64,000 bases of DNA from an uncultured delta proteobacterium (lineage in GTDB: Bacteria > Desulfobacterota > Desulfobacteria > Desulfobacterales > B30-G6). Numbering within the stretch: position 1 is the first letter of the stretch; each line of letters starts with the position of its first letter. Shown here one piece after another: positions 12,870 to 44,702 of this stretch. The notes beneath the pieces are model-generated. The model ran no database searches, was not told the origin of the DNA, and saw only the letters and a list, made by a program, of their open reading frames with translations. The translations under genes and the position numbers were made by a program. Location of the stretch: contig CAWGLD010000005.1 in NCBI GenBank assembly GCA_963823335.1, positions 160,001-224,000 on the forward strand, read 5' to 3'.

Positions 12870-12916
12870 AATCGTTTTACGATTATATTTTCAATGGACT
12901 GGGGATTCATAATTCA

Positions 12917-15689: not shown

Positions 15690-15690
15690 G

Positions 15691-21522: not shown

Positions 21523-21571
21523 ATGGCAAAAAAAAGGTGATAAAATTAACTATACCCTACCATCTGGCCTG

Positions 21572-23282: not shown

Positions 23283-23365
23283 TTGTCGACTCCCTGATTC
23301 CCGGAAGCAAGATGCGGTTTCTGATTATCTGAAACACACATCTTGCTTTCCAGTATTGTAGCTCT

Positions 23366-24442: not shown

Positions 24443-24612
24443 GATAGTCTCCTTCTCTTTGTAATGCTGCATAGGTCCTTGCCGGATTTTGATTTTTTCA
24501 GTCAGTCAAATTTTCTCTGTCCACCCCCTTTCAATTCGGATGTAAGGGTATTACCCACCGTCACTGTTTTTTCACAGATGGAAACCTTCGCCTGCAATAA
24601 GCGAAAGCCGGC

Positions 24613-25722: not shown

Positions 25723-25800
25723 ATGCTTTTCCTTCCTCACATAACTGATCCAAAAAAAAGTTTTCAGCAAGAGGTGTATGTTTATTGACGACAGTGTGTG

Positions 25801-25951
25801 TGTATATCGGAAACACAGTAACGGAATAAACACTAAAATGTCAAGCAAAATAATTCCTCATTCTTGCCCTTTCCGGAAGCCAGGAAAATGATATTTTTTT
25901 GCTTGACATTTTTGCAAAAATCTCTGTATGAATGTTTCCTATCCGAATACA
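25801..25951. promoter_or_regulatory. Symmetric divergent promoter region with candidate operators
   Basis: aaaatgtcaagcaaaa (25835-25850) and ttttgcttgacatttt (25897-25912) form a perfect inverted repeat; each contains TTGACA pointing outward and is followed by TGTTTCC...ACA. Confidence 0.65.
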
Positions 25952-26021
25952 AAGCGTCAACGATAAGCATACGATATTTTCTAACCCGACCTTGTACCCT
26001 AACGCGCCATGTGGAGGTTAT

Positions 26022-27887
26022 ATGAATACTGAAAAAATATTTGGAAGTCATGGCCGGCTGCTCAGAATTGACCTCACCCACCAGGTTGTTCAAACAGAAC
26101 AATTGCCCTTAAATGATTTGCGCCTTTATTTGGGCGGAAGAGGGCTGGGTGCTGCAATCATGCTCAGAGAACTTCCGGCCGGAATCGACCCCCTTGGCGA
26201 AGAGAACCTCCTCATTTTTTCTACGGGTCCTCTGGTAGACTCACCTGTTCCTGGGAGCAACCGGTATGTTTTGCACACGAAATCCCCCCAAACGGGTCTC
26301 TATTCCTTTTCCGTGTCAGGCGGCCGTTTTGGTGACATGCTGAAAAAAACGGGTAACGACGTGATCATCATCAAGGGAAAAGCCTCCAGGCCGGTTTATC
26401 TCTTTGTGAAAGATGATGGCCGGGTTGAATTCAAAGACGCGTCACACCTGTGGGGTAAGGATACCGAAAAGACCCAGGAAAGCATCTTGTCGGAAACCGA
26501 CCCGGATGCCAGGGTTACCTGTATCGGTCCCGCCGGGGAGAATCTTGTGCCCTATGCTTGTCTTATCAATGAGCGACGGGCACTGGGGCGTGGTGGTGCA
26601 GGTGCTGTCATGGGATCTAAAAATCTGAAAGCCGTGGCCGTGTTGGGCCGGACCAGTGTTACTTTGGCCGATTCCGAAACCATGAAAACGGCCATAAAAA
26701 ACGGCTATCAGGAGCTTAAACAGAATCCTATGACGGCGAAAATTCTGAAGACCTACGGCAGTTCGAATATGCTCCGGGGCCTGATGAACCACGGTGCGCT
26801 GCCCGGAAATAACTGGGCAGAGGCTGCTCTTGACGAAGCCGAGTCGATTACCGCCGAACAGATGCGGGAGCATTTCCATGTCAAGGATCTGGCCTGTTCG
26901 GCCGGATGCCCGGTCAAGTGCTCGAAGATGTTCGCGGTAAAAGAAGGGGACTATCGCGGTGCGCAAAGCGAGGGTCCTGATTACGAAACCGTTTATGCCT
27001 TTGGGTCCTGTTGCGGTGTTTACGACCTGGCGCCCATCATTAGGGCGGATGAACTTTGCGATCTGTTAGGTCTCGATACAATCAGTACCGGCGTAAGTAT
27101 TGCCTTTGCAATGGAATGCCTGGAAAAAGGCATCATCGATGCCGGTGATGCCGATGCGGGCGATCTGGCATTTGGAAATGCCAAGGCCATGCTCAAGCTT
27201 GTTGAAGATGTGGCTTACAAAAGAGGCTTTGGCGTGGTGGTGGCAGAAGGAACCCGTGCTATGGCAGGCCGTTTTGGACGTGATTCACACAAATTTGCCA
27301 TGCATGCCAAGGGCATGGAGCTGGGGGGCTACGATCCGAGGGGTATGAAAGGGATGGGGCTCGTTTATGCCTGCGGCCCGAGGGGCGGGTGCCACCATGC
27401 CGGCGGCTATACAGCCATTGCTGAAATGATGAACCCCCAGATAGACCGATTTTCAGAAAAGGGTAAGGCCCCACTTGTGGCCGGAACCCGAAACAGACGT
27501 GCTTCTCTTTGCGACTCAGGTCTCATCTGTGCTTTCGTGGCCATCGGGCTCAGCGATGAAACCGTAATCGGTATGCTAAACAGCGCCACCGGGTTCAATT
27601 ACCAGCCAAGTGATCTGCACACCATTGGAGACAGAATCAGCCAGATCGAAAGGGCTTTTAACTGCCGGGAAGGGCTGACACGTGGTGATGACGTGCTCCC
27701 TGAACGGTTGTTGTCAGAAAGTGTCACCCGCGGACCCAGTCAGGGAGGGAAAATGGAGGATTTTGAGGCCATGAAAGACGAGTTCTACACGCTGTGTGGC
27801 TGGGACCTCACTTCAGGTGCTCCTCTGGAAGAAAGACTAGAAGCACTGGATATCGGCTGGGTGAAAGACATTCTCAAAACAAAATAA
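26022..27887 (+). CDS. Aldehyde:ferredoxin oxidoreductase (tungsten family), copy 1
   Basis: YLGGRGLG, KSPQTG, GRGGAGAVMGSKNLKA, CSAGCPVKC, DYET, DLLGLDTIS, GYDPRG, DSGLIC; RBS ggagg. Confidence 0.95.
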   Translation: MNTEKIFGSHGRLLRIDLTHQVVQTEQLPLNDLRLYLGGRGLGAAIMLRELPAGIDPLGEENLLIFSTGPLVDSPVPGSNRYVLHTKSPQTGLYSFSVSGGRFGDMLKKTGNDVIIIKGKASRPVYLFVKDDGRVEFKDASHLWGKDTEKTQESILSETDPDARVTCIGPAGENLVPYACLINERRALGRGGAGAVMGSKNLKAVAVLGRTSVTLADSETMKTAIKNGYQELKQNPMTAKILKTYGSSNMLRGLMNHGALPGNNWAEAALDEAESITAEQMREHFHVKDLACSAGCPVKCSKMFAVKEGDYRGAQSEGPDYETVYAFGSCCGVYDLAPIIRADELCDLLGLDTISTGVSIAFAMECLEKGIIDAGDADAGDLAFGNAKAMLKLVEDVAYKRGFGVVVAEGTRAMAGRFGRDSHKFAMHAKGMELGGYDPRGMKGMGLVYACGPRGGCHHAGGYTAIAEMMNPQIDRFSEKGKAPLVAGTRNRRASLCDSGLICAFVAIGLSDETVIGMLNSATGFNYQPSDLHTIGDRISQIERAFNCREGLTRGDDVLPERLLSESVTRGPSQGGKMEDFEAMKDEFYTLCGWDLTSGAPLEERLEALDIGWVKDILKTK

Positions 27888-27972
27888 TTCTGTGGGCATC
27901 CTAAAAGTGTGAGCGATTGCTTGTGTGCTTTTTTCGACGGCATAAACCAACCTGCGATGAAAGGAGGTAGAT

Positions 27973-28185
27973 GTGACTACGTTCGTCAAGAAAAATCGAC
28001 AATGGTGGATTACGTGGTTAATTGTCTGGATCGTCATGTATCTGCTGGCAATTCTGATATATCCGGACGCCCCCTCGATTTGGTTTGGATGGCTGCCAAG
28101 TTCGGTGGTAACCACTTTCGGGTTGATGGTCGCTTCCCTGATCTTTGGATATCTATTTGCCAAACAGCGGTTCAGCCAGAAATAG
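27973..28185 (+). CDS. Small two-helix membrane protein, probable SSS-symporter accessory subunit
   Basis: 70 aa, hydrophobic, WFGWLP motif, RBS aggagg, upstream of an SSS gene. Confidence 0.75.
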   Translation: MTTFVKKNRQWWITWLIVWIVMYLLAILIYPDAPSIWFGWLPSSVVTTFGLMVASLIFGYLFAKQRFSQK

Positions 28186-28210
28186 TCCTGGTGTCAGTGT
28201 AAACCGCAAC

Positions 28211-28274
28211 AGCGAGCGCATTCCCCATAGGTTCTGCCGTTCGGCAGTGCTTCGCATGCTGCGAGGTTCTTCAA
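28211..28274 (+). repeat. Dispersed repeat family A copy
   Basis: agcgagcgcattcccc...ttctgccgttcggcagtgcttcgcatgctgcgaggttcttcaa; both ends match the 42808 copy. Confidence 0.85.
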
Positions 28275-28327
28275 AACCGTATCTGATCTGGAAATATAAT
28301 TTTCCAGACGCTGGAAAGGAGGCCAAA

Positions 28328-29815
28328 TTGATTCTGAAAGTCATCCCTATCTTAATAATCGTTGCTTACATGGTGGTCTGTCTTGTGGTCGGTTATACTG
28401 TTTTCCGTTCTAAAGCCAAAATGAAATCCGGAGATTATTTTATCGGAGATCGAACCAGCGGTTCTTTTGTGGGACCCATGTCCTACATATCCACGGTATT
28501 CAGCGCTCTTGTCTTCATGGGTGCCGTAGGTATTTATTTTGCCCTCGGTATTGGTTTCAATATCTTTCTTATCAGTGAAATGTTTCTCCTGGCTGTGTTT
28601 GTCCCCACGGTGGGATATCTCTTCTGGCGGCTGGCCCACCAACACCAATACGTAACACCAGCGGACCTGATGACCCATCGCTACGGAAACGGACGGACTG
28701 TCCGGATCATCGTGGGCTTGAACACCGTCGGTTTTATGATATTCTTCATGGCCACCCAAATCGTCGGCATTTCTTACATCATGGAAACCATTACCGGCGG
28801 GCTGATGAGCTATGGTGCCTCGGTTATCCTTATTTCGGTCGTTCTGGCCTTTTATATCGTTTTGGGTGGATTCCGTGCCATAGAGTACACCGACACCTTC
28901 CAGGTGATTATTCTCATGACCTGTGTCGTGGGTACCTTTTTATTTTTAAGCACGAGTATTGACTGGACGGCTGCTTTCGTCCAGGCGCAACAGATCCGTC
29001 CGGCACTTTTCAAGGCTCCGGGCCCGATACCCATCTACACGACCAAGCTTTATATGTCTCAACTCTTTGTCATCGGTCTCGGGTTTGCACTGATGCCGCA
29101 ACTCTGGGTACGGATATACGCCGTCAAGAACGAAAAAGGCCTGCAGAATATCGTGACCTATTTTATCGGGAGCACGATCATCCTGTTCATTATTTCGTTT
29201 TTCCTGGCTGTGGCTGCTGCGCCAATTATTGGCAAACTGTTCGCCGAAGGAGAAAAACTTGTCCCGGCCAAAATTGTCATGAAGCTCATGTTCAGCAACA
29301 TGCCTTCCTGGCTGGCAGCTACGCTGCTTACCGGAGCTATCGCGGCGACCATGTCAACCGTGGACTCGGCGGTGCTGGCCCTCAGTTCCATCCTGACCAT
29401 CGATCTTTACCGCAAGCCGTTCAATCCCGAAATGAACCCGGCAAAAGAGGCCACTGTCGGGCGGATTGTCAGTGTATTGCTGATAGCCATCATGGCAGTT
29501 CTGGCCTTTTATCCACCGCAGTTGCTATTCAATTCGCTCATAGACATGGCCTATCCCGGATTGGTAACCCTTGCACCGGCTGCCATCTTGGGTATGTTCT
29601 GGAAAAAAGCCGGAACCGCTGCCGCGATCTCCAGTATTGTGTCGGGCTCTGTCCTGGCCGTGTATCTGATTTTTCATAAAAACCCAATGGGGCTCTACTC
29701 AGGTTTCTGGACCCTGCTGCTCAGTTTGGCGGTCTTCGGGGCAGTGACGTTTCTTATGCCATCAAAAGACGCAAGCTTTTTCAGGGATGTCGAGCGTGTC
29801 AGTGTTCATGAGTAA
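28328..29815 (+). CDS. Sodium:solute symporter (SSS, PanF/PutP-like)
   Basis: DYFIGDR, GGFRAIEYTDTFQ, AATMSTVDS; TTG start after aaggagg. Confidence 0.92.
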   Translation: MILKVIPILIIVAYMVVCLVVGYTVFRSKAKMKSGDYFIGDRTSGSFVGPMSYISTVFSALVFMGAVGIYFALGIGFNIFLISEMFLLAVFVPTVGYLFWRLAHQHQYVTPADLMTHRYGNGRTVRIIVGLNTVGFMIFFMATQIVGISYIMETITGGLMSYGASVILISVVLAFYIVLGGFRAIEYTDTFQVIILMTCVVGTFLFLSTSIDWTAAFVQAQQIRPALFKAPGPIPIYTTKLYMSQLFVIGLGFALMPQLWVRIYAVKNEKGLQNIVTYFIGSTIILFIISFFLAVAAAPIIGKLFAEGEKLVPAKIVMKLMFSNMPSWLAATLLTGAIAATMSTVDSAVLALSSILTIDLYRKPFNPEMNPAKEATVGRIVSVLLIAIMAVLAFYPPQLLFNSLIDMAYPGLVTLAPAAILGMFWKKAGTAAAISSIVSGSVLAVYLIFHKNPMGLYSGFWTLLLSLAVFGAVTFLMPSKDASFFRDVERVSVHE

Positions 29816-29856
29816 GATGACCTGTTTCACCACACATGGGTCTGGAGAGAAGCATT

Positions 29857-30468
29857 ATGATGGTTGAAGAGTATGTTAGTAAAATCGCCCAGCGGATAAA
29901 AAACCGCCGGATCGAACTGGGTCTTTCTATTCGGGAAGCAGCGAGGTTAACTGACACGTCTCCCTCGACGATCCAGAAAATCGAATCGAACGAGATGGTC
30001 CCATCCATAGCGATTCTAATGAAGATTGCCCGTGGTCTCAATCAAAAGGTCACCTCTTTTTTTGAGAACGCGTCCGAACCCCGGAAAGTAGTGTTGGTGC
30101 GCCATGATGAGCGAAGGTCGACGACAATCCCCGCCTCCGGTCTCAAGGTTGAGGACTTGGGCTCATCGATAGAAGACGCTCGGCTGGAAGCATCGATCCT
30201 GACCATAGAAAAAGGGGGCAGCAGTGGGAAGGATCCCCTCATCCACGAGGGAGAGGAAATCAAGTTCTGTATGAAAGGCAAAATCGGTTACACAATCAGT
30301 GATGAAGAGTATGTGCTCGAAGCTGGAGACTGTATCCATTTTAAATCAGGAAACCCTCACTACTGGAAGAACGAAGATGCCGGAACCACGCGGGTTTTCT
30401 CTGTTGTGTTCAACGGTCCCTATTCCCAGCCGGCAAGAACAAAAAATGGGCGGGTAAAAAAAAGATAG
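29857..30468 (+). CDS. XRE-family HTH plus cupin transcriptional regulator (PuuR-like)
   Basis: GLSIREAARLTDTSPSTIQKIE HTH; HEGEE...GDCIHF...PH cupin. Confidence 0.92.
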   Translation: MMVEEYVSKIAQRIKNRRIELGLSIREAARLTDTSPSTIQKIESNEMVPSIAILMKIARGLNQKVTSFFENASEPRKVVLVRHDERRSTTIPASGLKVEDLGSSIEDARLEASILTIEKGGSSGKDPLIHEGEEIKFCMKGKIGYTISDEEYVLEAGDCIHFKSGNPHYWKNEDAGTTRVFSVVFNGPYSQPARTKNGRVKKR

Positions 30469-30554
30469 TCACAACCGGAAAACACTGCAGGACAATTAAA
30501 AAATCTGAACAAATTCATTGGTATGTGAAACAAAGCCGAAAAGGAGGAAAACCC

Positions 30555-31718
30555 ATGAGAGAACATGCCCTTTTTAATATGAGCTCCGGACCTGTCCAGG
30601 GAAGTGCCCGGACACTCCGGGCGCTATCCCAGCAAATTCTTTACCATCACGATCCTGAGTTTGCTGAGATATTTGATGCCTGCACCGAAAAACTGCAACG
30701 GTTTTTCAAGACATCAGGAGATGTCATTATCATGCAGGGTGAGGCACTCCTGGGCTTGGAAGCTGCGGCGTTCTGTACGATCGAACCCGGTGACAAATGT
30801 CTCAATTTAGTGTCCGGGATATACGGTCATCTATATGCCTGGTACATAGAGGCCTTCGGCGGCCAGATAGTTGAAGTGAGGACCGATTACAACAAGGCTA
30901 TCGATCCGGCCGAGGTGGAGAAGGCTTTTGCTGAGAACCCGGACATCAAGATCATGGCGGTTGTACACAGTGAGACACCTTCGGGAACTGTCAACCCCAT
31001 CGAGGACCTCTGCCCCATCGCTAAGAAATACGGCGCAATAACTATCGTCGATGCAGTTTCTTCCATTGGTGGGACAGAAGTGAATGTAGACGACTGGGGG
31101 ATCGACATCTGTTGTATCGGCCCGCAGAAGTGCCTGGCGTCGTCCCCGGGACTTGCACCAGTGGCTGTGAGTGAAGATGCCTGGGAAAAGATGCGCACTA
31201 AATCCAAGCCAGTGAGGTACTCCTACATGAGCATGCTCGATTTTAAAGAGCAATGGCTGTGTGAGAAAGAAAAGCGCAGTTTTCCGTATACCATGTTTAC
31301 CAATGAAGTCGTGGCCCTTGACGAAACCCTGGATCAGGTGTTTGAGGAAGGTCTGGAAAATATGATCGCTCGACACAAAACGGCGGCCAGAATGGCGCGT
31401 GCCGGGGTTAAGGGGATGGGACTTTCACTCTGGGCAGACACGGAAGACATCTGCGGGCCCTGCGCCACGGCGGTCAGAGCGCCGGACGGTGTCGACGAAG
31501 TCAAATTGCGGCGGCATCTTTATGATAAATATCGGATAACCATTTCCGGTGGATTCCGCGAACTTAAAGGAAAACTTTTCCGACTGGGCCATATGGGGCC
31601 GACGGCCAACCCTGCCTATGTCGCCATGCAGTTGGCAATGGTGGAAAAATCACTCCACGATATGGGCTACCCGGTTAAACTCGGCAGCGGTGTTGGGGCG
31701 GCTCTGGAAGCGATTTAA
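30555..31718 (+). CDS. Class V aminotransferase, pyridoxamine-pyruvate aminotransferase-like
   Basis: QGEALLGLEAAA, LNLVSGIYG, YNKAIDP, HSETPSGTVNP, VDAVSS, GPQKCL, TAVRAPDGVDE, RLGHMGPTA; parallels the Mesorhizobium PPAT sequence as recalled. Confidence 0.8.
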   Translation: MREHALFNMSSGPVQGSARTLRALSQQILYHHDPEFAEIFDACTEKLQRFFKTSGDVIIMQGEALLGLEAAAFCTIEPGDKCLNLVSGIYGHLYAWYIEAFGGQIVEVRTDYNKAIDPAEVEKAFAENPDIKIMAVVHSETPSGTVNPIEDLCPIAKKYGAITIVDAVSSIGGTEVNVDDWGIDICCIGPQKCLASSPGLAPVAVSEDAWEKMRTKSKPVRYSYMSMLDFKEQWLCEKEKRSFPYTMFTNEVVALDETLDQVFEEGLENMIARHKTAARMARAGVKGMGLSLWADTEDICGPCATAVRAPDGVDEVKLRRHLYDKYRITISGGFRELKGKLFRLGHMGPTANPAYVAMQLAMVEKSLHDMGYPVKLGSGVGAALEAI

Positions 31719-31746
31719 TTTAAACAGGATGCAAGGGAGGCAAAAA

Positions 31747-32145
31747 ATGCTGAATTTTGCAAACGAGAAATGCGTTAACTGTCGACTCTGTGAGGAGGTC
31801 TGCTCTTTCAGACTTACCAATGCGGTTTATCCCGGTGTTGCGGCTATTCGCATCGGTCGGGAGGAAGGCAGGTGGGGGACACCCTATGCCATGGTTTGTA
31901 ATCTGTGTGAGGGTTTGGAAGAACAGAAATGCATAACGGCATGTCCGGAAGATGCGCTCAACCTTGGTAACGGGGTGATCGTTTGGGATGATGAAAAATG
32001 TACCCGGTGTGAGCTGTGTGTCGACGCGTGTCCGCAAAAGGGGGTGGCTTTCGACAGCCGGTCCGAACGTATTCATATCTGTGATCTTTGCGGCGGTGAA
32101 CCGCTATGTATCGAGTGGTGCCCTGAAGAAGTGATTACCCTTTAA
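31747..32145 (+). CDS. Multi-[4Fe-4S] electron-transfer subunit (AOR partner)
   Basis: CVNCRLCEEVC, CNLC...CITACP, CTRCELCVDACP, CDLC...CIEWCP. Confidence 0.92.
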   Translation: MLNFANEKCVNCRLCEEVCSFRLTNAVYPGVAAIRIGREEGRWGTPYAMVCNLCEGLEEQKCITACPEDALNLGNGVIVWDDEKCTRCELCVDACPQKGVAFDSRSERIHICDLCGGEPLCIEWCPEEVITL

Positions 32146-32169
32146 GTCAAGATTGAAAGGAGCACAAAA

Positions 32170-33982: not shown

Positions 33983-34013
33983 TACCGAATAAAAACAAGA
34001 AAGGAAAATATTC

Positions 34014-35204: not shown

Positions 35205-35295
35205 GATTGATCTCAGTCACCAAACAAAAATCGATACGTAATATTTTATCACAACCGATGTGCTACAGAGGTTGGGAAAATGGAGGTTCTTTAAC

Positions 35296-36714
35296 ATGCC
35301 GTATGATAGCTTTCAGCATTATTTAGAGACGCTTGAAAAAAATGACTGTGTCAAGTGGGTCGAGAAAGAAGTAGATAAAGATTGGGAAATTACGAGTGTG
35401 GCTCGTAATTACTTCAGGAAAACCAAGGAAAGTGAAAGATGTGCATTGGGCTTTCGAAACGTGAAAGGGTACGACATTCCCGTGGTTCTCGGAGCCATCG
35501 GGGCATCCCGGAAAATATATGGTCTCGCCATTGAAACAGACCCTGGGTTCAGCAGTATCAAAGAGACCTTGTCCGGTGCTCTGGCAAACCCCATCGACCC
35601 GGTAGTGGTCGATAGTGGCCCGTGCAAGGATGTGATTTTGACCGGTGATGAAGTGGACTTGTACCGCTTTCCCATTCCCACATGGACACCGGAAAAGGAT
35701 CCAGCTCCATTTCTGACAGCCCCTTGTCTGTTCACACGCCACGCTGAAACCGGGGTTGGAAACATCGGAACTTACCGGATGGAAATAAAGGCCAAAAATG
35801 AAACAGGTGTGTTATGGGATCTTCCAAGCCAACATGGCGCCGTTCATTACGCCTCATGGGAAAAACGGAACGAACCCATGCCCATGGCGGTTGTCATCGG
35901 AGCGGATCCGACCATCATCATGTCATCGGTAAGCAAGGTGCCGTTGGGGGTTGACGAAATATCCGTTGCCGGAGGACTGCGTGGCAAACCCGTGGAGGTG
36001 GTCAAATGCGAAACATGCGACATATACGTACCAGCCACCGCCGAAATCGTTCTCGAAGGCGTGGTTTTGCCTGGTGAGAGTGTGGTGGAAGGACCCTTTG
36101 GGGAATACACCGGATACATGGGTGGTCCGTATATGATGCCCAAGTTTTATGTCAAGTGCATCACCCATCGCAAAAAGCCGGTCTATCACGCACTGTTCAG
36201 CCAGATGCCGCCAAGCGAGAGCAGCCTGATGCGGCAGCTGCCCGAAGAGGCCAATGTCTATCAACATCTGAACGGCTATCTGAAAATACCCGGTATAAAG
36301 GACGTTCATCTGCCTGAGGCAGGCGGGAGCTACTCCATCTGCTGGATCAGCATGAAAACCTCCTTTCCCGGACACGTACAGCAAGTCTTGTCCGCTGCCT
36401 GGACCCACCACCCCACATTTGCCAAATGGATCGTGGTCACCGACGATGACGTGGACATTCGCGACCCGTTTATACGGGAATGGATTCTGGCTTTTAGGGT
36501 GGAACCTCAAAAAGACATCACGTTTATGCCAAACACGGCCCCCATACTCCTGGATCCATCCTCGGATCCCCCCGAGGTGCCGCTATGGGATCGGCGCTCT
36601 TCCAAGGTGCTGATCGATGCCACCCAGAACTGGGAATATCCGGAAATTGCCTTGCCGCCCCAGAAGTATTTGGACCAGGCGGCTGACCAGTGGGAAAAAT
36701 ACGAATTAGATTGA
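35296..36714 (+). CDS. UbiD-family (prFMN-dependent) decarboxylase
   Basis: NIGTYRME, VVIGADP, VPATAEIVLEG, EGPFGEYTGY, VTDDDVD, KVLIDAT. Confidence 0.93.
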   Translation: MPYDSFQHYLETLEKNDCVKWVEKEVDKDWEITSVARNYFRKTKESERCALGFRNVKGYDIPVVLGAIGASRKIYGLAIETDPGFSSIKETLSGALANPIDPVVVDSGPCKDVILTGDEVDLYRFPIPTWTPEKDPAPFLTAPCLFTRHAETGVGNIGTYRMEIKAKNETGVLWDLPSQHGAVHYASWEKRNEPMPMAVVIGADPTIIMSSVSKVPLGVDEISVAGGLRGKPVEVVKCETCDIYVPATAEIVLEGVVLPGESVVEGPFGEYTGYMGGPYMMPKFYVKCITHRKKPVYHALFSQMPPSESSLMRQLPEEANVYQHLNGYLKIPGIKDVHLPEAGGSYSICWISMKTSFPGHVQQVLSAAWTHHPTFAKWIVVTDDDVDIRDPFIREWILAFRVEPQKDITFMPNTAPILLDPSSDPPEVPLWDRRSSKVLIDATQNWEYPEIALPPQKYLDQAADQWEKYELD

Positions 36715-36728
36715 TCAAGGAGAATTCT

Positions 36729-37679
36729 ATGAAAACTTTCGATATAAAAAAGGTGGCGGTTATCGGCACCGGAACCATGGGCCCGGGTATCGCCCAGGTG
36801 CTGGCTCAGCACGAGATCGATGTGCAGATATTCGACATCGATCCCGAACAGTTAATAAAAGCTCGGGAAACCCTGGGCGCGAACCTGGGCCTGGTGAAAC
36901 AGGCCGGTATGCTCTCTGACACCGAAGCGGTAGAGATCCAGAACCGGATTCAAAACGCCGCCAGTCTGGCGGATGCTGTCTTGAATGCCGACCTGGTACT
37001 CGAGGTCATTCCCGAAGTGATGGATCTCAAGACACGGCTTTTGCGTGAACTGGACGAAATCTGCGGGCCGGACACCATCCTGGCCAGCAACACCTCGGGG
37101 CTCAGCATTACCAGGATGGCCCAGGCCACCCGGCGTCCGGAAAAAGTGGTTGGTATGCACTGGTGGAACCCACCCATAATCATCCCGGTCATCGAAATCG
37201 TCAAGGGTGAGTCAACGGGTGAGGATGTTCTGCAAACAGTTGATAATCTGATCCGTAAAATAGGTAAGGTACCGGTTCTGGTCAAAAAAGACGTTCCGGG
37301 CTTTTTGGGCAATCGCTTACAGTACGCGCTCATGCGAGAAGCAATTGCGCTATTGAACGAGGGGGTTGCCAGCGCGGAAGACATCGACACCATGATCAAG
37401 GCCGGAATCGGATTCAAGTTTCCCGTTATGGGACCACTTGAAACAATCGACATGGCGGGTCTGGACATTTACTACCGCGTGTCCCAGTACCTGAATAAAG
37501 AGTTGGACAAGTCCGAAGGCGCCGCGCCCATCGTTGCCAAGATGGTCGAGCAGGGCGATCTGGGTCTCAAGAGCGGCAAAGGTTTCTACGATTATTCAAA
37601 CCAGGATGTCAAAGCGTTGATGGGTGGAAGGATTAAAAAACTGCTCCTTCTGCTGAAAGAGCTGGGATACGTGAAATAG
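36729..37679 (+). CDS. 3-hydroxyacyl-CoA dehydrogenase-family protein, 5-formyl-3-hydroxy-2-methylpyridine-4-carboxylate dehydrogenase-like
   Basis: GTGTMGPG, SNTSG, GMHWWNPPIIIPVIE, VKKDVPGF, GIGFK...GP, DMAGLDIY; family certain, specific assignment from recalled similarity and context. Confidence 0.75.
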   Translation: MKTFDIKKVAVIGTGTMGPGIAQVLAQHEIDVQIFDIDPEQLIKARETLGANLGLVKQAGMLSDTEAVEIQNRIQNAASLADAVLNADLVLEVIPEVMDLKTRLLRELDEICGPDTILASNTSGLSITRMAQATRRPEKVVGMHWWNPPIIIPVIEIVKGESTGEDVLQTVDNLIRKIGKVPVLVKKDVPGFLGNRLQYALMREAIALLNEGVASAEDIDTMIKAGIGFKFPVMGPLETIDMAGLDIYYRVSQYLNKELDKSEGAAPIVAKMVEQGDLGLKSGKGFYDYSNQDVKALMGGRIKKLLLLLKELGYVK

Positions 37680-37720
37680 CTTTTTAATTGCATCTTTATT
37701 TCCAGATGAAGGAGGCACAT

Positions 37721-38722
37721 ATGAAATCAAGCATCACACTGATCAAGGGCGCCAGGTTGATCGTGGAGCATTGCATGACGGTCAAGGCCGACGACAAGGT
37801 CCTGATTATCGCCGACGATGAGCACATGCCGGAAGCACAAAGTATTGCCGGCGTGGCATACTCACTGGGAGCCTATCCCGTGATTGCCAATGTGACCCAT
37901 CATGTCAGCGCCGCATTGGCTTCCATGACGGTGCCCATGGAACCACCGGCGCATCTGGCCCAGGCTATGCTGAACGCCGACGAGATCATCATCACCACCA
38001 ACCTGGAATGGGCAAACCGTTTTGCCCACGTAGACCCGGTCAAAGGCAGCGTCGAACGCGGTGCCAAGATAGCCTCCGTCGAGGAGGGGCTGGGCAGCTG
38101 GGACCTTGAGATCAGCGACATCGACCTGATCACCGAACGGGCGGAGAAGATAATCACGGCCATGCAAGGCGCCAAGTGGGTTCACGTAACCAATCCAGCG
38201 GGCACCGATGTCAATGTCTGTATTGAGAATCGGCCGCCACTGAAGGTCGTTCCGGTAAAAGAACCCGGTATCATGATGGGCCCAATCCCGTTGTGGGGGG
38301 AGGTCGCATATGCCGCCGTTGAGAACAAAACCCACGGCAAGATCGTGGTGGACGGTATCATGCTGGGTGTCGGGATCAGTGGCACCTTGCCGGAACATAT
38401 GACCTGGACCATCGAAAACGGTCGTGCGGTGGATATTTCCGGTGGCGAGGCAGCGCAAAAATTAAAAAAGGTCGTAGCCGATGCTGAGGAGAATGCCAAC
38501 ACCATTGCCGAATTTGCCATCGGTACCAGTCATAAGGAAAAATTCGGTAGCCCTTCTGAAAAAGGCATGCTGGGAACGGTCCACTTTGCCCTGGGGGACA
38601 ATGCCCACTGCTACCCCGGGGGACAGAGCTGGTGCAGTGTTCATCTTGATGGCAGTGTTCGGGATGTGACCATCGAAGTGGATGGCAAGCCGATTATGAA
38701 AGACGGCCAACTCATCATCTAA
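37721..38722 (+). CDS. Aminopeptidase T/M29-like metalloprotein (NicX-related fold)
   Basis: GEV, HGKIVVDG, IAEFAIGT, EKGMLGTVHFALGDN, HLDG. Confidence 0.8.
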   Translation: MKSSITLIKGARLIVEHCMTVKADDKVLIIADDEHMPEAQSIAGVAYSLGAYPVIANVTHHVSAALASMTVPMEPPAHLAQAMLNADEIIITTNLEWANRFAHVDPVKGSVERGAKIASVEEGLGSWDLEISDIDLITERAEKIITAMQGAKWVHVTNPAGTDVNVCIENRPPLKVVPVKEPGIMMGPIPLWGEVAYAAVENKTHGKIVVDGIMLGVGISGTLPEHMTWTIENGRAVDISGGEAAQKLKKVVADAEENANTIAEFAIGTSHKEKFGSPSEKGMLGTVHFALGDNAHCYPGGQSWCSVHLDGSVRDVTIEVDGKPIMKDGQLII

Positions 38723-38738
38723 GAAAGAGAGGAAAGCA

Positions 38739-39101
38739 ATGGGTATCAAAATTGTCAAAATATCTGAAATCGAGGCCATTCCGCTACCCAATGACAGCTG
38801 GTCAAAAAAAGTGTTGACCGCTGAAACTGTCGGGGCCGGGAAAATGTGTATGGGTGTATCTAAATTTGCTCCCGGGGTGGTGACGGACTTGTTGGTACAC
38901 GAAGAAGAGGAGCTGGCATACGTGCTCAAGGGTAAGGGCAGCCTGCGTCTAAAGGACGGTTCAGAGGTAACATACGAAGCAGGTGACGGCATCTACATCC
39001 CACCCGGAGTAGCGCACAGCGTGGTCAACGAAGGGAACGAAGACGTCGAAATGGTTTTCGGGTTTTCTTGGCCGGACTATCCTCCCACGCACAAGGAATA
39101 A
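38739..39101 (+). CDS. Cupin-domain protein
   Basis: HEEEELAYVLKGKG...GDGIYIPPGVAHSVVN. Confidence 0.9.
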   Translation: MGIKIVKISEIEAIPLPNDSWSKKVLTAETVGAGKMCMGVSKFAPGVVTDLLVHEEEELAYVLKGKGSLRLKDGSEVTYEAGDGIYIPPGVAHSVVNEGNEDVEMVFGFSWPDYPPTHKE

Positions 39102-39113
39102 CCGTCCGTATTG

Positions 39114-39141
39114 TCCGAAGACGACTGGCCGTCGTTTTCGG
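39114..39141 (+). terminator. Intra-operon stem-loop
   Basis: ccgaagacgac-tggcc-gtcgttttcgg. Confidence 0.45.
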
Positions 39142-39174
39142 GCCGGACACAACCGCATTATCAGGGAGAGTTTT

Positions 39175-40056
39175 ATGAAAGCCTTTGATTATGAGCGGCC
39201 CTCGGGTTTTGAAGATGCCTGTCGGTTACTGAATGGGGCCGGTGGCAGCAAGAAAGTTTTGGCGGGAGGGACGGATCTTCTTGTCAAAACAAGACATGGG
39301 GTGATTGCTCCAGAAGGGATGATCAGTCTCAGGGACATTCCCGGGTTGTCGGACATCTCATTTGATCCTGACAAGGGTCTATCGCTCGGTGCCATGACGC
39401 GACTTACCGATGTCGAAAACGATGGTATCGTGAAAGAACAATACCCGGCACTTGGCGCGGCAGTCGCTACCATAGGATCCACACAGGTCCGAAACAGGGC
39501 CACCATCGGAGGCAACATATGCAATGCGGCACCATCAGCGGATTCACCGCCGATCCTAATCGCCTACGGGGCTTCCGTAGTTATCGGGGATGGAAAAACT
39601 GAACGAGAAGTGCTGTTAGAGGAGTTTTTTACCGGCCCAGGACAGACCGTTCTGCGGGTGGGGGAAATCGTCAAGCAGATTCTTGTCCCGACACCGCCAA
39701 AAAATGTCTTCGCTATCTACATCAAGGCCGCCAGGTCTGCCCTCGATATCGCCCTTGTCGGTGTGGCCCTTGTGGCCATTTACGATCCTGCCGATTTGGT
39801 GGTCAAGGATCTGAAAGTAGCTTTGGCGGCCGTGGCGCCGACACCGGTTCGATCCAGAGAAATGGAACGCATCGTCATTGGAAACAGACTCGACCAGGCA
39901 ATCATCGAGAAAGCCGTTGGAGAATCCTGCACCGATGCCTGTTCCATAACCGATATCCGGACAACCGAAGGCTATCGGGACACATTGGTTGAAACTCACA
40001 CCAGGCAGGCGCTTGAAGCGGCCAGGGCCTGGATCGAAAAGGGAGGTGCGCGGTGA
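39175..40056 (+). CDS. Xanthine dehydrogenase-family FAD subunit
   Basis: AGGTDL, QVRNRATIGGNICNAAPSAD. Confidence 0.95.
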   Translation: MKAFDYERPSGFEDACRLLNGAGGSKKVLAGGTDLLVKTRHGVIAPEGMISLRDIPGLSDISFDPDKGLSLGAMTRLTDVENDGIVKEQYPALGAAVATIGSTQVRNRATIGGNICNAAPSADSPPILIAYGASVVIGDGKTEREVLLEEFFTGPGQTVLRVGEIVKQILVPTPPKNVFAIYIKAARSALDIALVGVALVAIYDPADLVVKDLKVALAAVAPTPVRSREMERIVIGNRLDQAIIEKAVGESCTDACSITDIRTTEGYRDTLVETHTRQALEAARAWIEKGGAR

Positions 40057-40523
40057 AACGGGAACTCAACACAACGATCAACGGTCAGCCTTACAACCTC
40101 TTCGTGAGCACTCACCGCACACTTCTTGAGGTCATTCGCGACGACCTCGGTCTGACCGGGACCAAGGTGGGCTGTGAGATGGGAGAGTGCGGCGCCTGTA
40201 CGGTAATCATGGATGGCCGAACGGTTAATTCCTGCCTGGTTCTGGCACATGAGGCAGAAGGTTGTGAGGTGCAAACCATCGAGGATTTGGCAAAAGATGG
40301 CAAGCTGCATCCCATCCAGACATCGTTTATCGAACACGGAGCCATACAGTGCGGTTTCTGTACTTCCGGCATGATCATGTCAACCAAAGGTCTTTTGGAA
40401 AAGAACCCCCATCCCCTAAATGATGAAATCCGTTCAGAAATGCGGGGTAACATCTGCCGTTGTACAGGATACGTCAAGATCGTCGAGGCCATTGAAGCCG
40501 TCAGGGATGGAGGTGACAAATGA
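40053..40523 (+). CDS. Xanthine dehydrogenase-family [2Fe-2S] subunit
   Basis: GCEMGECGACTV, NSC, QCGFCT, NICRCTGY. Confidence 0.96.
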   Translation: MKRELNTTINGQPYNLFVSTHRTLLEVIRDDLGLTGTKVGCEMGECGACTVIMDGRTVNSCLVLAHEAEGCEVQTIEDLAKDGKLHPIQTSFIEHGAIQCGFCTSGMIMSTKGLLEKNPHPLNDEIRSEMRGNICRCTGYVKIVEAIEAVRDGGDK

Positions 40524-42799
40524 AGGGCAACATCATCGGAAAGAGAATCCCGAGGATCGACTCGGTTCCCAAGGCCACAGGCACAGCCCAGTACACCGTG
40601 GATCTGAAACTCCCGGGGATGATTTACGGCAAGATTCTGCGAAGTCCTGTTCCCCATGCTAGAATCAAGTCCCTGGATGTGTCCAAGGCCAAAGCGGTTC
40701 CGGGTGTCTGCGCCGTGATCACGGCCGACGACGTTCCCATGGGAAAGTTCAGTTTTTTTCAATGGCTGGCGGACAAAACAATTTTCGCCTCCGACAAGGT
40801 GCGTTACGTGGGCGACGAAGTGGCCGCGGTTGCCGCCATCGATGCAGATACTGCCGAAAGGGCCATCGAACTGATCGAGGTCGAGTATGAACCTTTAGCG
40901 ACGGTTTTTGATGCAGAAGAAGCCATGAAAGAGGATGCACCACGGATACATGACGGCGAAAGCAACGTGGGATTCAAGGTCGAGCGACATTTCGGTGATC
41001 CGGACAAGGCCTTTGATTCGTGTGATTTTGTGGCTGAGGGGCGTTACAAAACCGACCGGGTTGCACATTGTTGTCTTGAAGTATCCAATTGTGTGGCTTC
41101 GTGGACGCCGGACGGGCGGTTGACCATTATGACCAATGCTCAAGCACCGCACACCCAAAGACAGGAAGTAGCCCATATACTAGACATACCGTTGCGTGAC
41201 GTACGGATTATTAATTCTCATATGGGTGGCGGATTTGGTTCCAAGCTAGTGATGGACATGAAGTTGCCCATCGCTGCGGTACTGTCGAAAAAAACAGGTT
41301 GCCCGGTCAAGATCCAGAACACAAGGGCCGAAGAGTTTTCTACAGCCAAAACCCGCTATGGATACACCATGTATGTCAAAACCGGCGCCAAAAAAGACGG
41401 CACCCTACAGGCAAGGACCGTCCGGGTTGTTGCAGACAACGGTGCCTATCACGATAAGGGCCCGGCCACTCTCAATTTTTCATCGATGATGTTCGCAACC
41501 TTGTACAATATACCCAATATTCATTACGAGGGTCTGCTGGTCTATACCAACAAACAGATGGGTACCGCGTTTAGGGGTTTTGGCAACCCGCAACTGACCT
41601 TTGCCTGCGAGGTCCAGCTCGACGAACTGGCTGAAAAAATGGGTATGGATCCCATTGAAATCAGACGCATCAATGCAAATTATCCCGGTCAAAAATTACA
41701 GTGCGGCGCAATAGTTCCCACCTGTGGGCTCAAGGAGTGCATCGACGTGGCGGCTGAAAAAATCGCCTGGAAAGAGAAATTCAACCGCAAAGAGAAGCTC
41801 AGGGGTGTTGGTGTTGCCAATATGGTCCACACGGCGGCCGGCGGCCGTTACTATGGTTACAATGCCACGGATTCTTTTTTGAAGATTTCCGATGATGGTA
41901 CGGTTTCCATTGTCACCCCCGGTCTCGAAATGGGCCAGGGAGTTCACACGGTGGTGGCCATGATCGTGGCGGAAGAGCTTGGGTTGGACATGAAATCCGT
42001 CAAGGTGCTCTCCAACGATACCGATCTGACACCCTTTGATCTCGGTTCCTGGGGCAGCAGAGCAACCTTCGTGGTTGGCAATGCCGCCTTGGCAACGGCT
42101 CGCGAAGCCCGGACTGTCATTATCGAGACGGCTGCCAAAATGCTCGATGCAAAACCGGAGTTTGTCGATCTCGAAAACGGCATGGCCCTAGTCCGGTGTC
42201 CGGGGTTGCCGGAGAGATCCGTGAGCATGGGAGAACTCGCCGCTTACGCCATCAATAAACTGAAAGCACCCATTTCGGTCAGGGGTCAATGGGCGGATGA
42301 TATTCCTGAGGATTGGGATATCAAAACGGAGTTTGTTAAAAATGTCAGAAGCTTCGCCTTTGCAACCCAGACCTGCGAGGTTGAAATCGATGCGGGCACC
42401 GGAGAGGTCAAGGTGCTCAAGTTCGTGGCTGCCCATGAAACCGGAACAACGATGAATGAAATGCTCGCCGAAGGGCAGATTGAAGGGGCGGTCATGCAGG
42501 GTATCGGTTTTACGCTTATGGAAGCGATGACCCTCGACAATGGCCGAGTGGTCAACGATGGGTTTCTGGATTACAAACTCCCTACCTTTGGCGAACAACC
42601 TGAAATAGATGTACAGCTCATCGAGACCGGTGATCCCCATGGGCCATATGGAGCAAAAGGAATCGGTGAAGCCGGGCTGGTGCCCACTGCTGCTGCGCTT
42701 GCCAACGCTATCTACGATGCGTCAGGAATACGGGTGACGGAACTGCCCGTCACCCGTGAATTCATACTCAATGCGTTGAGGGAAAAGAAGATGTCCTGA
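40520..42799 (+). CDS. Xanthine dehydrogenase-family molybdopterin subunit
   Basis: GGGFGSK, AFRGFG, EMGQG, GSRAT, EGQIEG, GAKGIGE catalytic Glu. Confidence 0.95.
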   Translation: MKGNIIGKRIPRIDSVPKATGTAQYTVDLKLPGMIYGKILRSPVPHARIKSLDVSKAKAVPGVCAVITADDVPMGKFSFFQWLADKTIFASDKVRYVGDEVAAVAAIDADTAERAIELIEVEYEPLATVFDAEEAMKEDAPRIHDGESNVGFKVERHFGDPDKAFDSCDFVAEGRYKTDRVAHCCLEVSNCVASWTPDGRLTIMTNAQAPHTQRQEVAHILDIPLRDVRIINSHMGGGFGSKLVMDMKLPIAAVLSKKTGCPVKIQNTRAEEFSTAKTRYGYTMYVKTGAKKDGTLQARTVRVVADNGAYHDKGPATLNFSSMMFATLYNIPNIHYEGLLVYTNKQMGTAFRGFGNPQLTFACEVQLDELAEKMGMDPIEIRRINANYPGQKLQCGAIVPTCGLKECIDVAAEKIAWKEKFNRKEKLRGVGVANMVHTAAGGRYYGYNATDSFLKISDDGTVSIVTPGLEMGQGVHTVVAMIVAEELGLDMKSVKVLSNDTDLTPFDLGSWGSRATFVVGNAALATAREARTVIIETAAKMLDAKPEFVDLENGMALVRCPGLPERSVSMGELAAYAINKLKAPISVRGQWADDIPEDWDIKTEFVKNVRSFAFATQTCEVEIDAGTGEVKVLKFVAAHETGTTMNEMLAEGQIEGAVMQGIGFTLMEAMTLDNGRVVNDGFLDYKLPTFGEQPEIDVQLIETGDPHGPYGAKGIGEAGLVPTAAALANAIYDASGIRVTELPVTREFILNALREKKMS

Positions 42800-42807
42800 A
42801 CCGAAAA

Positions 42808-42914
42808 AGCGAGCGCATTCCCCGTAGCTTGCTGCGGGGTTAGCGAGCGAATCTAGATTAGACAGAATTCCTTACGGTCGAAGATTACTCGGAGCTTGCT
42901 GCGAGGTTCTTCAA
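42808..42914 (+). repeat. Dispersed repeat family A, long copy (REP/MITE-like)
   Basis: agcgagcgcattccccgtagcttgctgcggggttagcgagcgaa...ccttacggtcg...agcttgctgcgaggttcttcaa. Confidence 0.85.
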
Positions 42915-43160
42915 TAGCCCTTTAGGCTTACCCCGGGTAAATTATTGAAAGGGGTCTGGCGATTTTGTACGGTACGGGAACGGCTGGTCGGGTGGTTCAA
43001 TGGATCGATCGGTTGTTTTAATCGGATCAACATACAATTTAAAATGATTTTCGTTCAATAAATTATCCGCCATTGACACCAGATTTTCTCGGTGAACGAA
43101 TTTCGGATAAAGATGTGAACCGATCGATCCGCTATGGTATAGCACCTGAGGTAGACAGAC

Positions 43161-44693: not shown

Positions 44694-44702
44694 AGGAACA
44701 AC

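Follow-up and report, generated by a model that had tools for sequence, protein, structure and literature searches.

To our knowledge, the only bacteria known to degrade vitamin B6 are aerobes, in which ring opening needs O2. The enzymes of pathway I in Mesorhizobium loti are pyridoxamine-pyruvate transaminase (PPAT), FHMPC dehydrogenase, HMPDC decarboxylase, and MHPC oxygenase. Nicotinate is fermented by Eubacterium barkeri with a Se-dependent nicotinate dehydrogenase, a 6-hydroxynicotinate reductase, and an enamidase. The locus described here lies in a stretch of 64,000 nucleotides (the window; positions 160,001 to 224,000 of contig CAWGLD010000005.1, assembly GCA_963823335.1, or G000:C5:160001-224000) from an uncultured delta proteobacterium of the Desulfobacterota, whose genome comprises 4.37 Mb in 11 contigs and is 93.9% complete. 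It contains a co-directional gene cluster of ~22 kb (about 26022-47842), followed downstream by cofactor-maturation genes. With moderate confidence, we read this cluster as encoding the O2-independent catabolism of non-phosphorylated B6 compounds (pyridoxamine, pyridoxal, and 4-pyridoxate) in a sulfate-reducing member of its phylum. Three independent markers, an aminotransferase, a HAD-family dehydrogenase, and an ABC transporter, point to vitamin B6 on the basis of their nearest named relatives. A preliminary description, made from the DNA letters alone, had knowledge of no anaerobic B6 pathway; none was found in the literature searched, which did not cover subscription journals.

Pfam and NCBIfam scans of 19 translated open reading frames (ORFs) place 18 genes on the + strand between ~26.0 and 47.8 kb of the window. 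All genes listed beforehand, from the first aldehyde:ferredoxin oxidoreductase (AOR1) to the XDH trimer, were found on this strand and in the families named. The starts proposed at 26022, 30555, and 36729 are the most plausible ones because they are ATG codons after Shine-Dalgarno-like motifs; for AOR1, in addition, the alignment with solved AORs begins only at residue 36-37 of the longer ORF. The run had been taken to end at 42799 with the XDH trimer, which proved too short, as + strand genes go on to 47842 with a BMP-type ABC transporter. This B6-type transporter and the maturation genes for a Se-dependent Mo hydroxylase had both been overlooked, and both strengthen the case for B6. The host carries dsrA (616 bits, above cut-off), with a dsrB-like gene adjoining. 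The genes of the cluster are as follows.

26022-27887, + strand: AOR1, a tungsten-type aldehyde:ferredoxin oxidoreductase (AFOR_N, AFOR_C; ORF opens at 25932)
28145-29815, + strand: sodium:solute symporter (SSS; Pfam SSF)
29836-30468, + strand: PuuR-like regulator with HTH_3 and cupin domains (Pfam HTH_3, Cupin_2; PuuR 70 bits, below cut-off)
30555-31718, + strand: PPAT-like class V aminotransferase (NF046070; ORF opens at 30525)
31747-32145, + strand: small 4Fe-4S ferredoxin-like (Fd) subunit before AOR2 (Fer4; ATG at 31747 after AAGGGAGG)
32170-33982, + strand: AOR2, a second aldehyde:ferredoxin oxidoreductase (AFOR_N, AFOR_C; frameshifted)
34014-35204, + strand: PreA-like reductase, DHO_dh/FMN barrel with C-terminal 2x[4Fe-4S] (Pfam DHO_dh, Fer4)
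35260-36714, + strand: UbiD-family (prFMN) decarboxylase (TIGR00148)
36729-37679, + strand: FHMPC-dehydrogenase-like HAD-family NAD dehydrogenase (NF042925; ORF opens at 36690)
37721-38722, + strand: NicX-fold/M29-like metalloenzyme (Foldseek NicX, weak Pfam M29; ORF opens at 37688)
38739-39101, + strand: small cupin, 120 aa (Pfam Cupin_2)
39175-40056, + strand: XDH-family FAD subunit (FAD_binding_5, CO_deh_flav_C; XdhB 223 bits, below cut-off)
40053-40523, + strand: XDH-family 2x[2Fe-2S] subunit (Fer2, Fer2_2)
40520-42799, + strand: XDH-family molybdopterin subunit (Ald_Xan_dh_C, MoCoBD_1/2)
43161-44693, + strand: BMP-type ABC transporter ATPase (B6 ABC model, 563 bits, cut-off 670)
44703-45734, + strand: BMP-type ABC permease (B6 ABC model, 335 bits, cut-off 400)
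45734-46672, + strand: BMP-type ABC second permease (B6 ABC model, 282 bits, cut-off 465)
46805-47842, + strand: BMP-type ABC binding protein (B6 ABC model, 331 bits, cut-off 400)

In the proposed route, the BMP-type ABC transporter, the SSS symporter, or both would first bring the substrate into the cell. The PPAT-like transaminase would convert pyridoxamine and pyruvate to pyridoxal and alanine, and a tungsten-type AOR would oxidize pyridoxal to 4-pyridoxate while reducing ferredoxin. The FHMPC-dehydrogenase-like enzyme is expected to oxidize the 5-hydroxymethyl group with NAD+ to a 5-formyl compound, which the same enzyme or the second AOR would carry on to the 4,5-dicarboxylate. The prFMN-dependent UbiD would then remove one carboxyl group to give 3-hydroxy-2-methylpyridine-5-carboxylate, and the XDH-family hydroxylase, probably Se-dependent, would add an oxygen from water at the free carbon beside the ring nitrogen, yielding a substituted 2,5-dihydroxypyridine (5-hydroxy-2-pyridone). 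The pyridone ring would be reduced by the PreA-like FMN/FeS reductase, plausibly with low-potential electrons from the AORs; the gene order Fd-AOR2-PreA suggests that aldehyde oxidation may supply them. Opening of the reduced ring by the NicX-fold metalloenzyme would be hydrolytic and not driven by O2, and the cupin, perhaps with an M20 amidohydrolase, would process the open-chain product. Tungsten AORs would in this way stand in for oxidases, a prFMN UbiD would serve as the decarboxylase, and a Se-Mo hydroxylase would substitute for MHPC oxygenase. Proteins of the NicX fold have so far been known only as Fe(II) dioxygenases; here one would have taken on a new task, the hydrolytic opening of a reduced pyridone.

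The first marker is the aminotransferase, whose best NCBIfam model is NF046070 (pyridoxamine-pyruvate transaminase, EC 2.6.1.30) at 396 bits, followed by BhcA at 214. Its best match in the PDB is 2z9u/2z9x (312 bits; next 175), 2Z9X being listed as the PPAT of Mesorhizobium japonicum in Table 2 of PMC6797613. Homologues from related clusters in the loci fetched for comparison (L numbers; lineages are given below) score 366-406 bits on NF046070, compared with 645 for a PGAP-named PPAT from Rhizobium. Among 1.84 billion cluster representatives searched, 947 matched at E ≤ 1e-30, and 50 of these were scanned (the first 63 listed minus 13 fragments or odd lengths, with P0184-P0270 left out). In a quick maximum-likelihood tree of 61 rows (the 50 representatives and 11 window or locus proteins), the window protein, its counterpart in L003, and the Peptococcaceae copies form one 21-row clade (SH-aLRT 98) with the genuine PPATs L081 (Rhizobium, 645 bits), L083 (Haematobacter, 590), and P0135 (579). 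Addition of the Aerophobetes and Spirochaetes cluster copies gives a 26-row set (SH-aLRT 97), outside which fall the 35 BhcA-like or other AGXT-like rows. Nearest family, nearest structure, and tree grouping therefore all place the protein with PPAT and apart from BhcA- and AGXT-like proteins, which answers in the affirmative the phylogenetic check proposed at the outset. The active-site roles in PPAT we take to be those of the Schiff-base Lys197, of Glu68, which excludes the phosphate of pyridoxal phosphate (PLP), and of Arg336 and Arg345; the equivalents of the Lys, the Glu, and Arg345 are invariant in all eight aligned sequences.

The second marker, the HAD-family enzyme, has FHMPC dehydrogenase as its closest relative both in NCBIfam (NF042925, 328 bits; next 268) and in the PDB (4om8, 262 bits vs 215); 3-hydroxyacyl-CoA dehydrogenases are, by these scores, more distant. 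FHMPC_DH ranks first among the families in nine of nine cluster-linked HAD proteins (those of the window, L004, L005, L006, L007, L008, L012, L017, and L020), the homologues scoring 287-325 bits on NF042925. It is the top family in none of 15 control HAD proteins from the same fetched loci at E ≤ 1e-78: five are clearly CoA dehydrogenases, one (L019) is a near tie (277.7 vs 275.1), and nine have no match at that threshold. Likeness to FHMPC dehydrogenase is thus specific to the cluster-linked proteins, and the homology on which the preliminary description had staked its reading holds for this enzyme too. FHMPC dehydrogenase presumably also has dismutase activity. A Haematobacter HAD protein encoded near a PPAT-type gene was considered as a further FHMPC dehydrogenase and turned out to be carnitine-dehydrogenase-like.

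The third marker is the transporter. For all four of its subunits, "putative B6 ABC transporter" (NF047927-NF047930) is the top NCBIfam family, and it is the sole family match of the binding proteins of L003, L005, and L008. The window binding protein is 49% identical to one whose gene adjoins that of a PGAP-named PPAT on a plasmid of Rhizobium daejeonense; best family and linkage to a B6 gene both tie this transporter to B6. In L008 and in genome G002, the BMP transporter lies inside the cluster.

The R. daejeonense region (L081; NZ_CP048425, 5493-26672) encodes, besides PPAT and the BMP transporter, a GntR regulator, a lactonase-type protein, SDR and GMC enzymes, a NicX-family "2,5-dihydroxypyridine 5,6-dioxygenase", two amidases, and a 4-hydroxyphenylacetate-3-hydroxylase-like protein. 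This may be an aerobic B6 route of a kind not yet described, again with a dihydroxypyridine among its intermediates.

The enzymes that would act on the ring begin with the XDH-family trimer. The best single PDB match of its molybdopterin subunit is 4-hydroxybenzoyl-CoA reductase (4-HBCR) alpha (439 bits), and the L and M chains of E. barkeri nicotinate dehydrogenase match it at 313 and 184 bits, together spanning residues 4-754. In NCBIfam the subunit stays under the substrate-specific equivalog cut-offs of both 4-HBCR alpha (631/995) and XdhA (588/780). An assignment of the trimer as 4-HBCR was set aside: the FAD subunit, which presumably has the length of XdhB, matches 4-HBCR beta at only 100 bits in two stretches. 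Within 9 kb of the trimer lie YqeB and YqeC, an arrangement that corresponds to the architecture of a Se-dependent Mo hydroxylase. The genes downstream of the cluster are the following.

47928-49274, - strand: M20 amidohydrolase (TIGR01891 184 bits, above cut-off 154)
50299-51144, + strand: YqeB (355 bits, cut-off 220)
51159-51962, - strand: YqeC (193 bits, cut-off 73)
52021-52647, + strand: MocA-like cytidylyltransferase (Pfam)
52653-53672, - strand: MoCF_biosynth (Pfam)
53956-55071, + strand: DVU_1551-family NTP transferase (431 bits, cut-off 315)

The nicotinate-dehydrogenase match, the poor match to 4-HBCR beta, and the presence of YqeB and YqeC together suggest, from homology, a Se-dependent hydroxylase of the nicotinate-dehydrogenase kind. 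Membership of the M20 amidohydrolase in the pathway is uncertain, as the gene lies on the opposite strand and the fetched loci end short of it. Since B6 is a 3-hydroxypyridine, hydroxylation at its sole free carbon beside the nitrogen would be expected to give a product of the 2,5-dihydroxypyridine type. There is a precedent for such a step in HpdA of Ensifer adhaerens HP1, described as a molybdenum hydroxylase that turns 3-hydroxypyridine into 2,5-dihydroxypyridine (bioRxiv 10.1101/2020.01.08.898148). The likeness is one of description: HpdA, from an aerobe, is described as having four components including an SRPBCC subunit, whereas the present system has a three-subunit XDH with YqeB/YqeC.

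The PreA-like reductase has dihydropyrimidine dehydrogenase as its best PDB match (90 bits), and its homologues in the cluster loci are 55-96% identical. No gene for a PreT-like partner occurs within the cluster, the only part of the genome in which one was sought.

The product of the neighboring gene had been described as an M29-like metalloenzyme. It does match Pfam M29 weakly (PF02073, 44 bits, cut-off 27; residues 151-304 on profile positions 191-348 of 406), but the best match in fold is NicX, an enzyme with 2,5-dihydroxypyridine as its substrate, which suits a route through a 3-hydroxypyridine. By sequence the protein matches nothing in the PDB at E ≤ 0.01, and an AlphaFold (AF2) model was built from a 10-sequence alignment (pLDDT 82.8). 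The best Foldseek matches of this model are the NicX structures 7cn3 and 7cup of Pseudomonas putida KT2440 (E 5e-21, TM 0.71-0.75, 348 vs 344 aa), followed by the M29 aminopeptidases PepS, AmpT, and AmpS (TMq 0.65-0.72), which are ~65 residues longer. A protein atlas lookup also indicates NicX-domain clusters, and BLASTP aligns the protein over its full length, at 24% identity, with a PGAP-named 2,5-dihydroxypyridine 5,6-dioxygenase from the Rhizobium plasmid. The likeness to NicX extends from fold and length (334-344 aa in this family) to the equivalents of NicX His318 and Asp320, and a hydroxypyridine or pyridone substrate would be expected for both. The differences are the exchange of His265 for Glu and of Ser302 for Leu, an identity of 18-19% to the NicX chains, and a sulfate-reducing host.

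These exchanges matter because His265, Ser302, His318, and Asp320 are given as the Fe(II) ligands of NicX, all of them essential (PMC7910607). In the 24%-identity alignment with the NicX-family protein, which is numbered like NicX, the corresponding positions are Glu275, Leu302, His319, and Asp321, so that two of the four iron ligands are replaced. E205, E275, H299, H319, and D321 are invariant in the 10-sequence alignment of the family. We take this set to resemble the metal site of M29 hydrolases. Given the replaced ligands and the family-invariant residues, the protein is not filed as a NicX dioxygenase, and a hydrolase on a NicX scaffold is proposed instead. The cupin encoded next is kept in eight relatives with H54, E57, E58, and H93 invariant; gentisate 1,2-dioxygenase and the oxalate decarboxylase family are among its weak matches.

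Relatives of the cluster were sought by alignment of HAD homologues, with 80 loci kept of 124 confirmed, and surveyed by tblastn with 21 window proteins against these 80 loci and the neighboring stretch of one contig. The cluster or a variant of it is present in 12 of the 80 fetched loci, so that the synteny check proposed beforehand comes out in favor, with recurrence in other anaerobes, mostly metagenome-assembled genomes (MAGs). The lineages are those of the record titles.

L001: Desulfobacterales MAG; complete, 80-96% identity
L002: Deltaproteobacteria MAG; contig begins inside AOR2
L003: SAR324 MAG; complete
L004 (genome G001): Deltaproteobacteria MAG
L005 with L093: Spirochaetes MAG
L006: Aerophobetes MAG
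L007: Clostridia MAG
L008: Spirochaetes MAG
L017, L026: Peptococcaceae MAGs
L012, L020: an unnamed bacterium and a Nitrospinota MAG; more divergent variants

The recurring core consists of the regulator, the Fd-AOR pair, and the PPAT-like, PreA-like, UbiD, HAD, NicX-fold, cupin, and AOR1-type second AOR genes, with the BMP transporter and XDH genes inserted at differing places between genomes. The PPAT-like gene lies within the cluster in seven genomes (window, L001, L003, L006, L008, G002, and G003). Because the same neighbors surround the HAD gene in 12 of 80 loci, the arrangement is no chance adjacency. A second, independent pairing of a PPAT-like transaminase with a vitamin-type importer and an AOR is found in the Peptococcaceae genome G004 (L092; G004:C20:1-20000, ~4600-19000), where three tandem PPAT-like genes (394-406 bits) are interleaved with four energy-coupling factor (ECF) S-component genes (PF07155), followed by ECF A, A′, and T genes and an AOR. 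No specific vitamin family was matched by these S components.

The two divergent variants, L012 and L020, combine an FHMPC_DH-type HAD gene with UbiD, and no PPAT-like, PreA-like, or cupin gene is in view; L012 also holds a NicX-fold gene, XDH genes, and an SsuA/NMT1-type ABC transporter. Both may act on a related substrate. Some relatives carry genes that are not in the window, namely an Amidohydro_2 gene (PF04909) beside the ABC transporter in the SAR324 and Spirochaetes versions (L003:16379-17092; L005:5505-6221) and an Fe-dependent alcohol dehydrogenase in the latter (L005:11325-12476). In public sequencing runs, sequence words from positions 32900-33700 of the window occur in 20 of the 22 runs listed, among them six RNA libraries; the runs belong to 13 metagenome studies of sediment, estuary, and marine sediment. 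Contigs of two RNA libraries cover 27 and 28 of 30 cluster bins, which is weak evidence and no proof of transcription. The bins at 35238-36571 have almost no depth in all four runs, DNA included, and such holes prove nothing.

Several observations weigh against a B6 pathway and are best considered together. All of the markers score below the curated thresholds of their models: the aminotransferase reaches 396 of the 600 bits of the NF046070 equivalog cut-off, the HAD enzyme 328 of 500 on NF042925, the PreA-like reductase 210 of 335 on NF006183, and the transporter subunits 563/670, 335/400, 282/465, and 331/400. NF046070 scores among the 50 scanned relatives run continuously from 258 to 579 bits, so PPAT has no sharp family boundary. 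The position aligned to PPAT Arg336 is Phe in the window protein, with an Arg one residue later. Glu68 was tried as a discriminating residue and discarded, since it is present in all eight aligned sequences, including an AGXT-family protein of P. acidaminophilum, and does not discriminate within this set. Among 25 listed of 74 plasmid records, no PGAP-named FHMPC dehydrogenase was available for a HAD tree. One cluster-bearing genome (G001, with L004) has no PPAT-like gene at E ≤ 1e-60, the variants L012 and L020 carry an SsuA/NMT1-type ABC transporter in place of the BMP type, and, of the 401 genomes sampled from the host phylum, just 2 were found to hold the NicX-fold marker, the host included, so that the cluster is rare and patchy. 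The NicX and cupin folds both include O2-dependent dioxygenases. Moreover, what is observed is gene content, family relationships, and conservation; the substrate, the order of the steps, and every catalytic step we infer from these. The overall B6 proposal of the preliminary description therefore finds partial support: the computational checks are favorable, while the sub-threshold markers, the inferred steps, and its statement on oxygenases, which needs qualification, hold it back.

The strongest rival, although unlikely, is that the same logic serves another N-heterocycle with aminomethyl or hydroxymethyl groups, such as the pyrimidine moiety of thiamine (4-amino-5-hydroxymethyl- or 5-aminomethyl-2-methylpyrimidine) or another substituted hydroxypyridine; each of the other three rivals, O2-dependent cleavage, a furan pathway, and chance adjacency, has a lower probability. 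The equivalog cut-offs just mentioned, which no B6 marker reaches, leave room for such a substrate, and the ring reductase is a relative of dihydropyrimidine dehydrogenase. The NMT1/SsuA-type binding protein, not BMP, that accompanies the HAD, UbiD, NicX-fold, and XDH genes of the L012 and L020 variants fits this alternative, as do the ECF S components beside the Peptococcaceae PPAT-like genes with their lack of a specific vitamin family. It is opposed by the fact that three unrelated proteins each have a B6-catabolism protein as their nearest named relative and by the place of the transaminase among genuine PPATs in the tree. Both the NicX fold and the likeness of the Mo subunit to nicotinate dehydrogenase indicate a pyridine and not a pyrimidine, and the two aldehyde-level carbons of B6 match the two conserved AOR types.

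If B6 is the substrate, its ring could still be cleaved with O2 under microoxic conditions, with the NicX-fold protein or the cupin acting as a dioxygenase; we regard this as improbable. The preliminary description had reported neither a flavin oxidase nor an oxygenase, and cluster scans indeed found none, but the statement must be qualified for the two dioxygenase-containing folds. The best structural match of the metalloenzyme is an Fe(II) dioxygenase whose His318 and Asp320 it conserves, a NicX-family gene also stands in the aerobic-type Rhizobium plasmid cluster with PPAT, and the cupin has its weak gentisate 1,2-dioxygenase and oxalate decarboxylase matches. Against dioxygenase function, the essential His265 and Ser302, as given for NicX in PMC7910607, align to Glu275 and Leu302. 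The five family-invariant residues argue in the same direction, with the resemblance to an M29 site that we presume for them. The host has dsrA, and the cluster also encodes AORs and a hydroxylase of the YqeB/YqeC type. Cleavage of the still aromatic ring by a dioxygenase would leave a ring reductase without purpose.

The UbiD-family decarboxylase scores 314 bits on TIGR00148 (cut-off 245), and a UbiX gene elsewhere in the genome (G000:C1:573918-574460, 241 bits vs 109) supports its placement in the UbiD family. Its closest solved relative, 6h6x/6h6v (230 bits), is PtHmfF, given in PMC8988006 as a furan-2,5-dicarboxylate decarboxylase. HmfF removes one carboxyl group from a heteroaromatic dicarboxylate, which is the kind of reaction proposed here; PtHmfF scores only slightly above E. 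coli UbiD (218 bits), so the substrate specificity of the window enzyme is unreadable from this match. An anaerobic hydroxymethylfurfural (HMF)/furfural pathway, in which the AORs and the HAD enzyme would form furan-2,5-dicarboxylate for an HmfF-like UbiD and the XDH trimer would resemble furoyl-CoA dehydrogenase, gains from this relative and from the fact that HMF, like B6, has one formyl and one hydroxymethyl group. HmfABC is likewise an XDH-family trimer. We nevertheless consider such a pathway highly improbable: the HmfF score barely exceeds that of E. coli UbiD, no CoA ligase was found in the cluster by Pfam and NCBIfam scans, and the PPAT-clade transaminase, the NicX-fold protein, and the B6-type transporter would have no role.

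It is also very unlikely that no single pathway exists and that unrelated operons (aldehyde detoxification, a purine or nicotinate hydroxylase, and a nucleoside ABC transporter) merely lie side by side, because, although BMP-family transporters and XDH enzymes commonly serve purine metabolism and the gaps at 27888-28144 and 42800-43160, in which a repeated element lies, may separate transcription units, the same genes recur in differing orders in distant lineages, the ABC transporter lies between the AOR and XDH genes in L008 and between the HAD gene and the Fd-AOR pair in G002, and the NicX-fold marker was found only in the host and one other of the 401 sampled genomes of its phylum. Reordered recurrence in distant lineages together with rarity in the host phylum fits a mobile functional unit.

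The repeated element is ~45 nt long and intergenic, with copies at 28200-28245 (after AOR1) and 42797-42841 (after the XDH genes) and a partial copy at 42884-42908. In each of the four public runs its bins are 20-100 times deeper than their neighbors, and there are contigs that connect one site with the other. A REP-like element common in these metagenomes is the probable explanation.

The cluster holds two AORs, which fits an anaerobic setting. AOR1, whose likely start at 26022 is an ATG after GGAGG, matches AFOR_N and AFOR_C at 246 and 402 bits. Its nearest PDB entries are AORs (441, 412, and 407 bits), above FOR (310) and BamB (195), which together with the AFOR domains places it in the AOR family. 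AOR1-type orthologues with 46-60% identity occur in L004, L006, L007, and L008, and the Fd-AOR gene pair is kept in L001, L003, L005, L006, and L008. The SSS symporter matches panF best in NCBIfam (163 bits, below the cut-off of 328) and has homologues in L001, L003, L017, and L026, while regulator homologues with 29-80% identity are found in L001, L003, L004, L006, and L008.

AOR2 had been assigned to the right family and place, but a single surplus A in the run at 33290-33293 breaks its reading frame. One frame (32170-33333) holds AFOR_N and the first part of AFOR_C, and the other (33311-33982) the rest of AFOR_C; in L001 and L003 the two halves share a single frame. When contigs of public runs were aligned to window positions 25900-45899, those across the frameshift site came from X1, X3, and X9, not X6. 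The base at 33290 is missing in near-identical contigs of X1 (2458 nt, 8 other differences), X3 (938 nt, 4 differences), and X9 (an RNA library). The break in frame thus reflects either an error of assembly or strain variation; in the population, AOR2 is intact. Elsewhere in the window, a DegT-type aminotransferase gene is in two pieces (6796-7209 and 7507-7854), and the liv-type permease/ATPase genes at 14345-15259 and 16465-17148 (within 14345-17148) have partial model matches only. The AOR2 frameshift and these other split or truncated genes suggest indel errors in the assembly.

Directly upstream of the cluster, the - strand at 19804-25848 encodes a potABCD-like ABC transporter and an alkylsulfatase-like metallo-beta-lactamase protein; the loci of the relatives end short of this region. 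Rfam gave no match at the gathering threshold over the whole window, and a scan for promoters and terminators gave counts near the shuffled expectation and was uninformative.

If the B6 reading is right, the cluster may be the first O2-independent route for mineralizing vitamin B6 and 4-pyridoxate, rare and horizontally spread among sediment anaerobes of several phyla, with the O2-dependent enzymes of the aerobic route replaced and a NicX-fold protein serving as a hydrolase; this wider proposal is put forward tentatively. According to a 2026 preprint, 4-pyridoxate is widely excreted as a terminal product, cannot be metabolized by most taxa, and is exchanged as a signal in the marine microbiome. 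An anaerobic sink in sediments would, if true, close the 4-pyridoxate loop. The proposal also predicts several enzymes: a PLP-independent transaminase in strict anaerobes, AORs that act on pyridoxal, a UbiD that acts on a pyridine dicarboxylate, and a NicX-fold member that is not an oxygenase.

Compared with the aerobic pathway I of Mesorhizobium loti/japonicum, the locus has PPAT and FHMPC dehydrogenase as the nearest named relatives of two of its proteins, and the proposed intermediates are the same down to the pyridine monocarboxylate. It also has a BMP-type ABC transporter related to the one that lies beside PPAT in a rhizobial B6-type cluster. Identity to the aerobic enzymes is only about 40-49%, with scores below the curated cut-offs. 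Pfam and NCBIfam scans of the window cluster found no flavin oxidase, GMC dehydrogenase, lactonase, class II aldolase-type decarboxylase, or MHPC oxygenase, in place of which tungsten AORs, UbiD, a Mo hydroxylase, a ring reductase, and the NicX-fold enzyme are proposed.

The comparison with nicotinate fermentation in E. barkeri concerns the lower half of the route, because the upper pathway of transaminase, AORs, HAD enzyme, and UbiD is without counterpart there. The present cluster has a PreA/dihydropyrimidine dehydrogenase-like reductase, a candidate hydrolase of NicX/M29 fold, and a Mo subunit in a single chain where E. barkeri has two; no amidohydrolase-type enamidase was found in the window cluster by Pfam scan. 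The Mo subunit matches both nicotinate dehydrogenase chains, and YqeB and YqeC are present. In both systems the ring would be hydroxylated beside its nitrogen with oxygen from water, reduced as a pyridone, and opened by hydrolysis, and the present locus would extend this "hydroxylate, reduce, hydrolyse" logic to a second vitamin.

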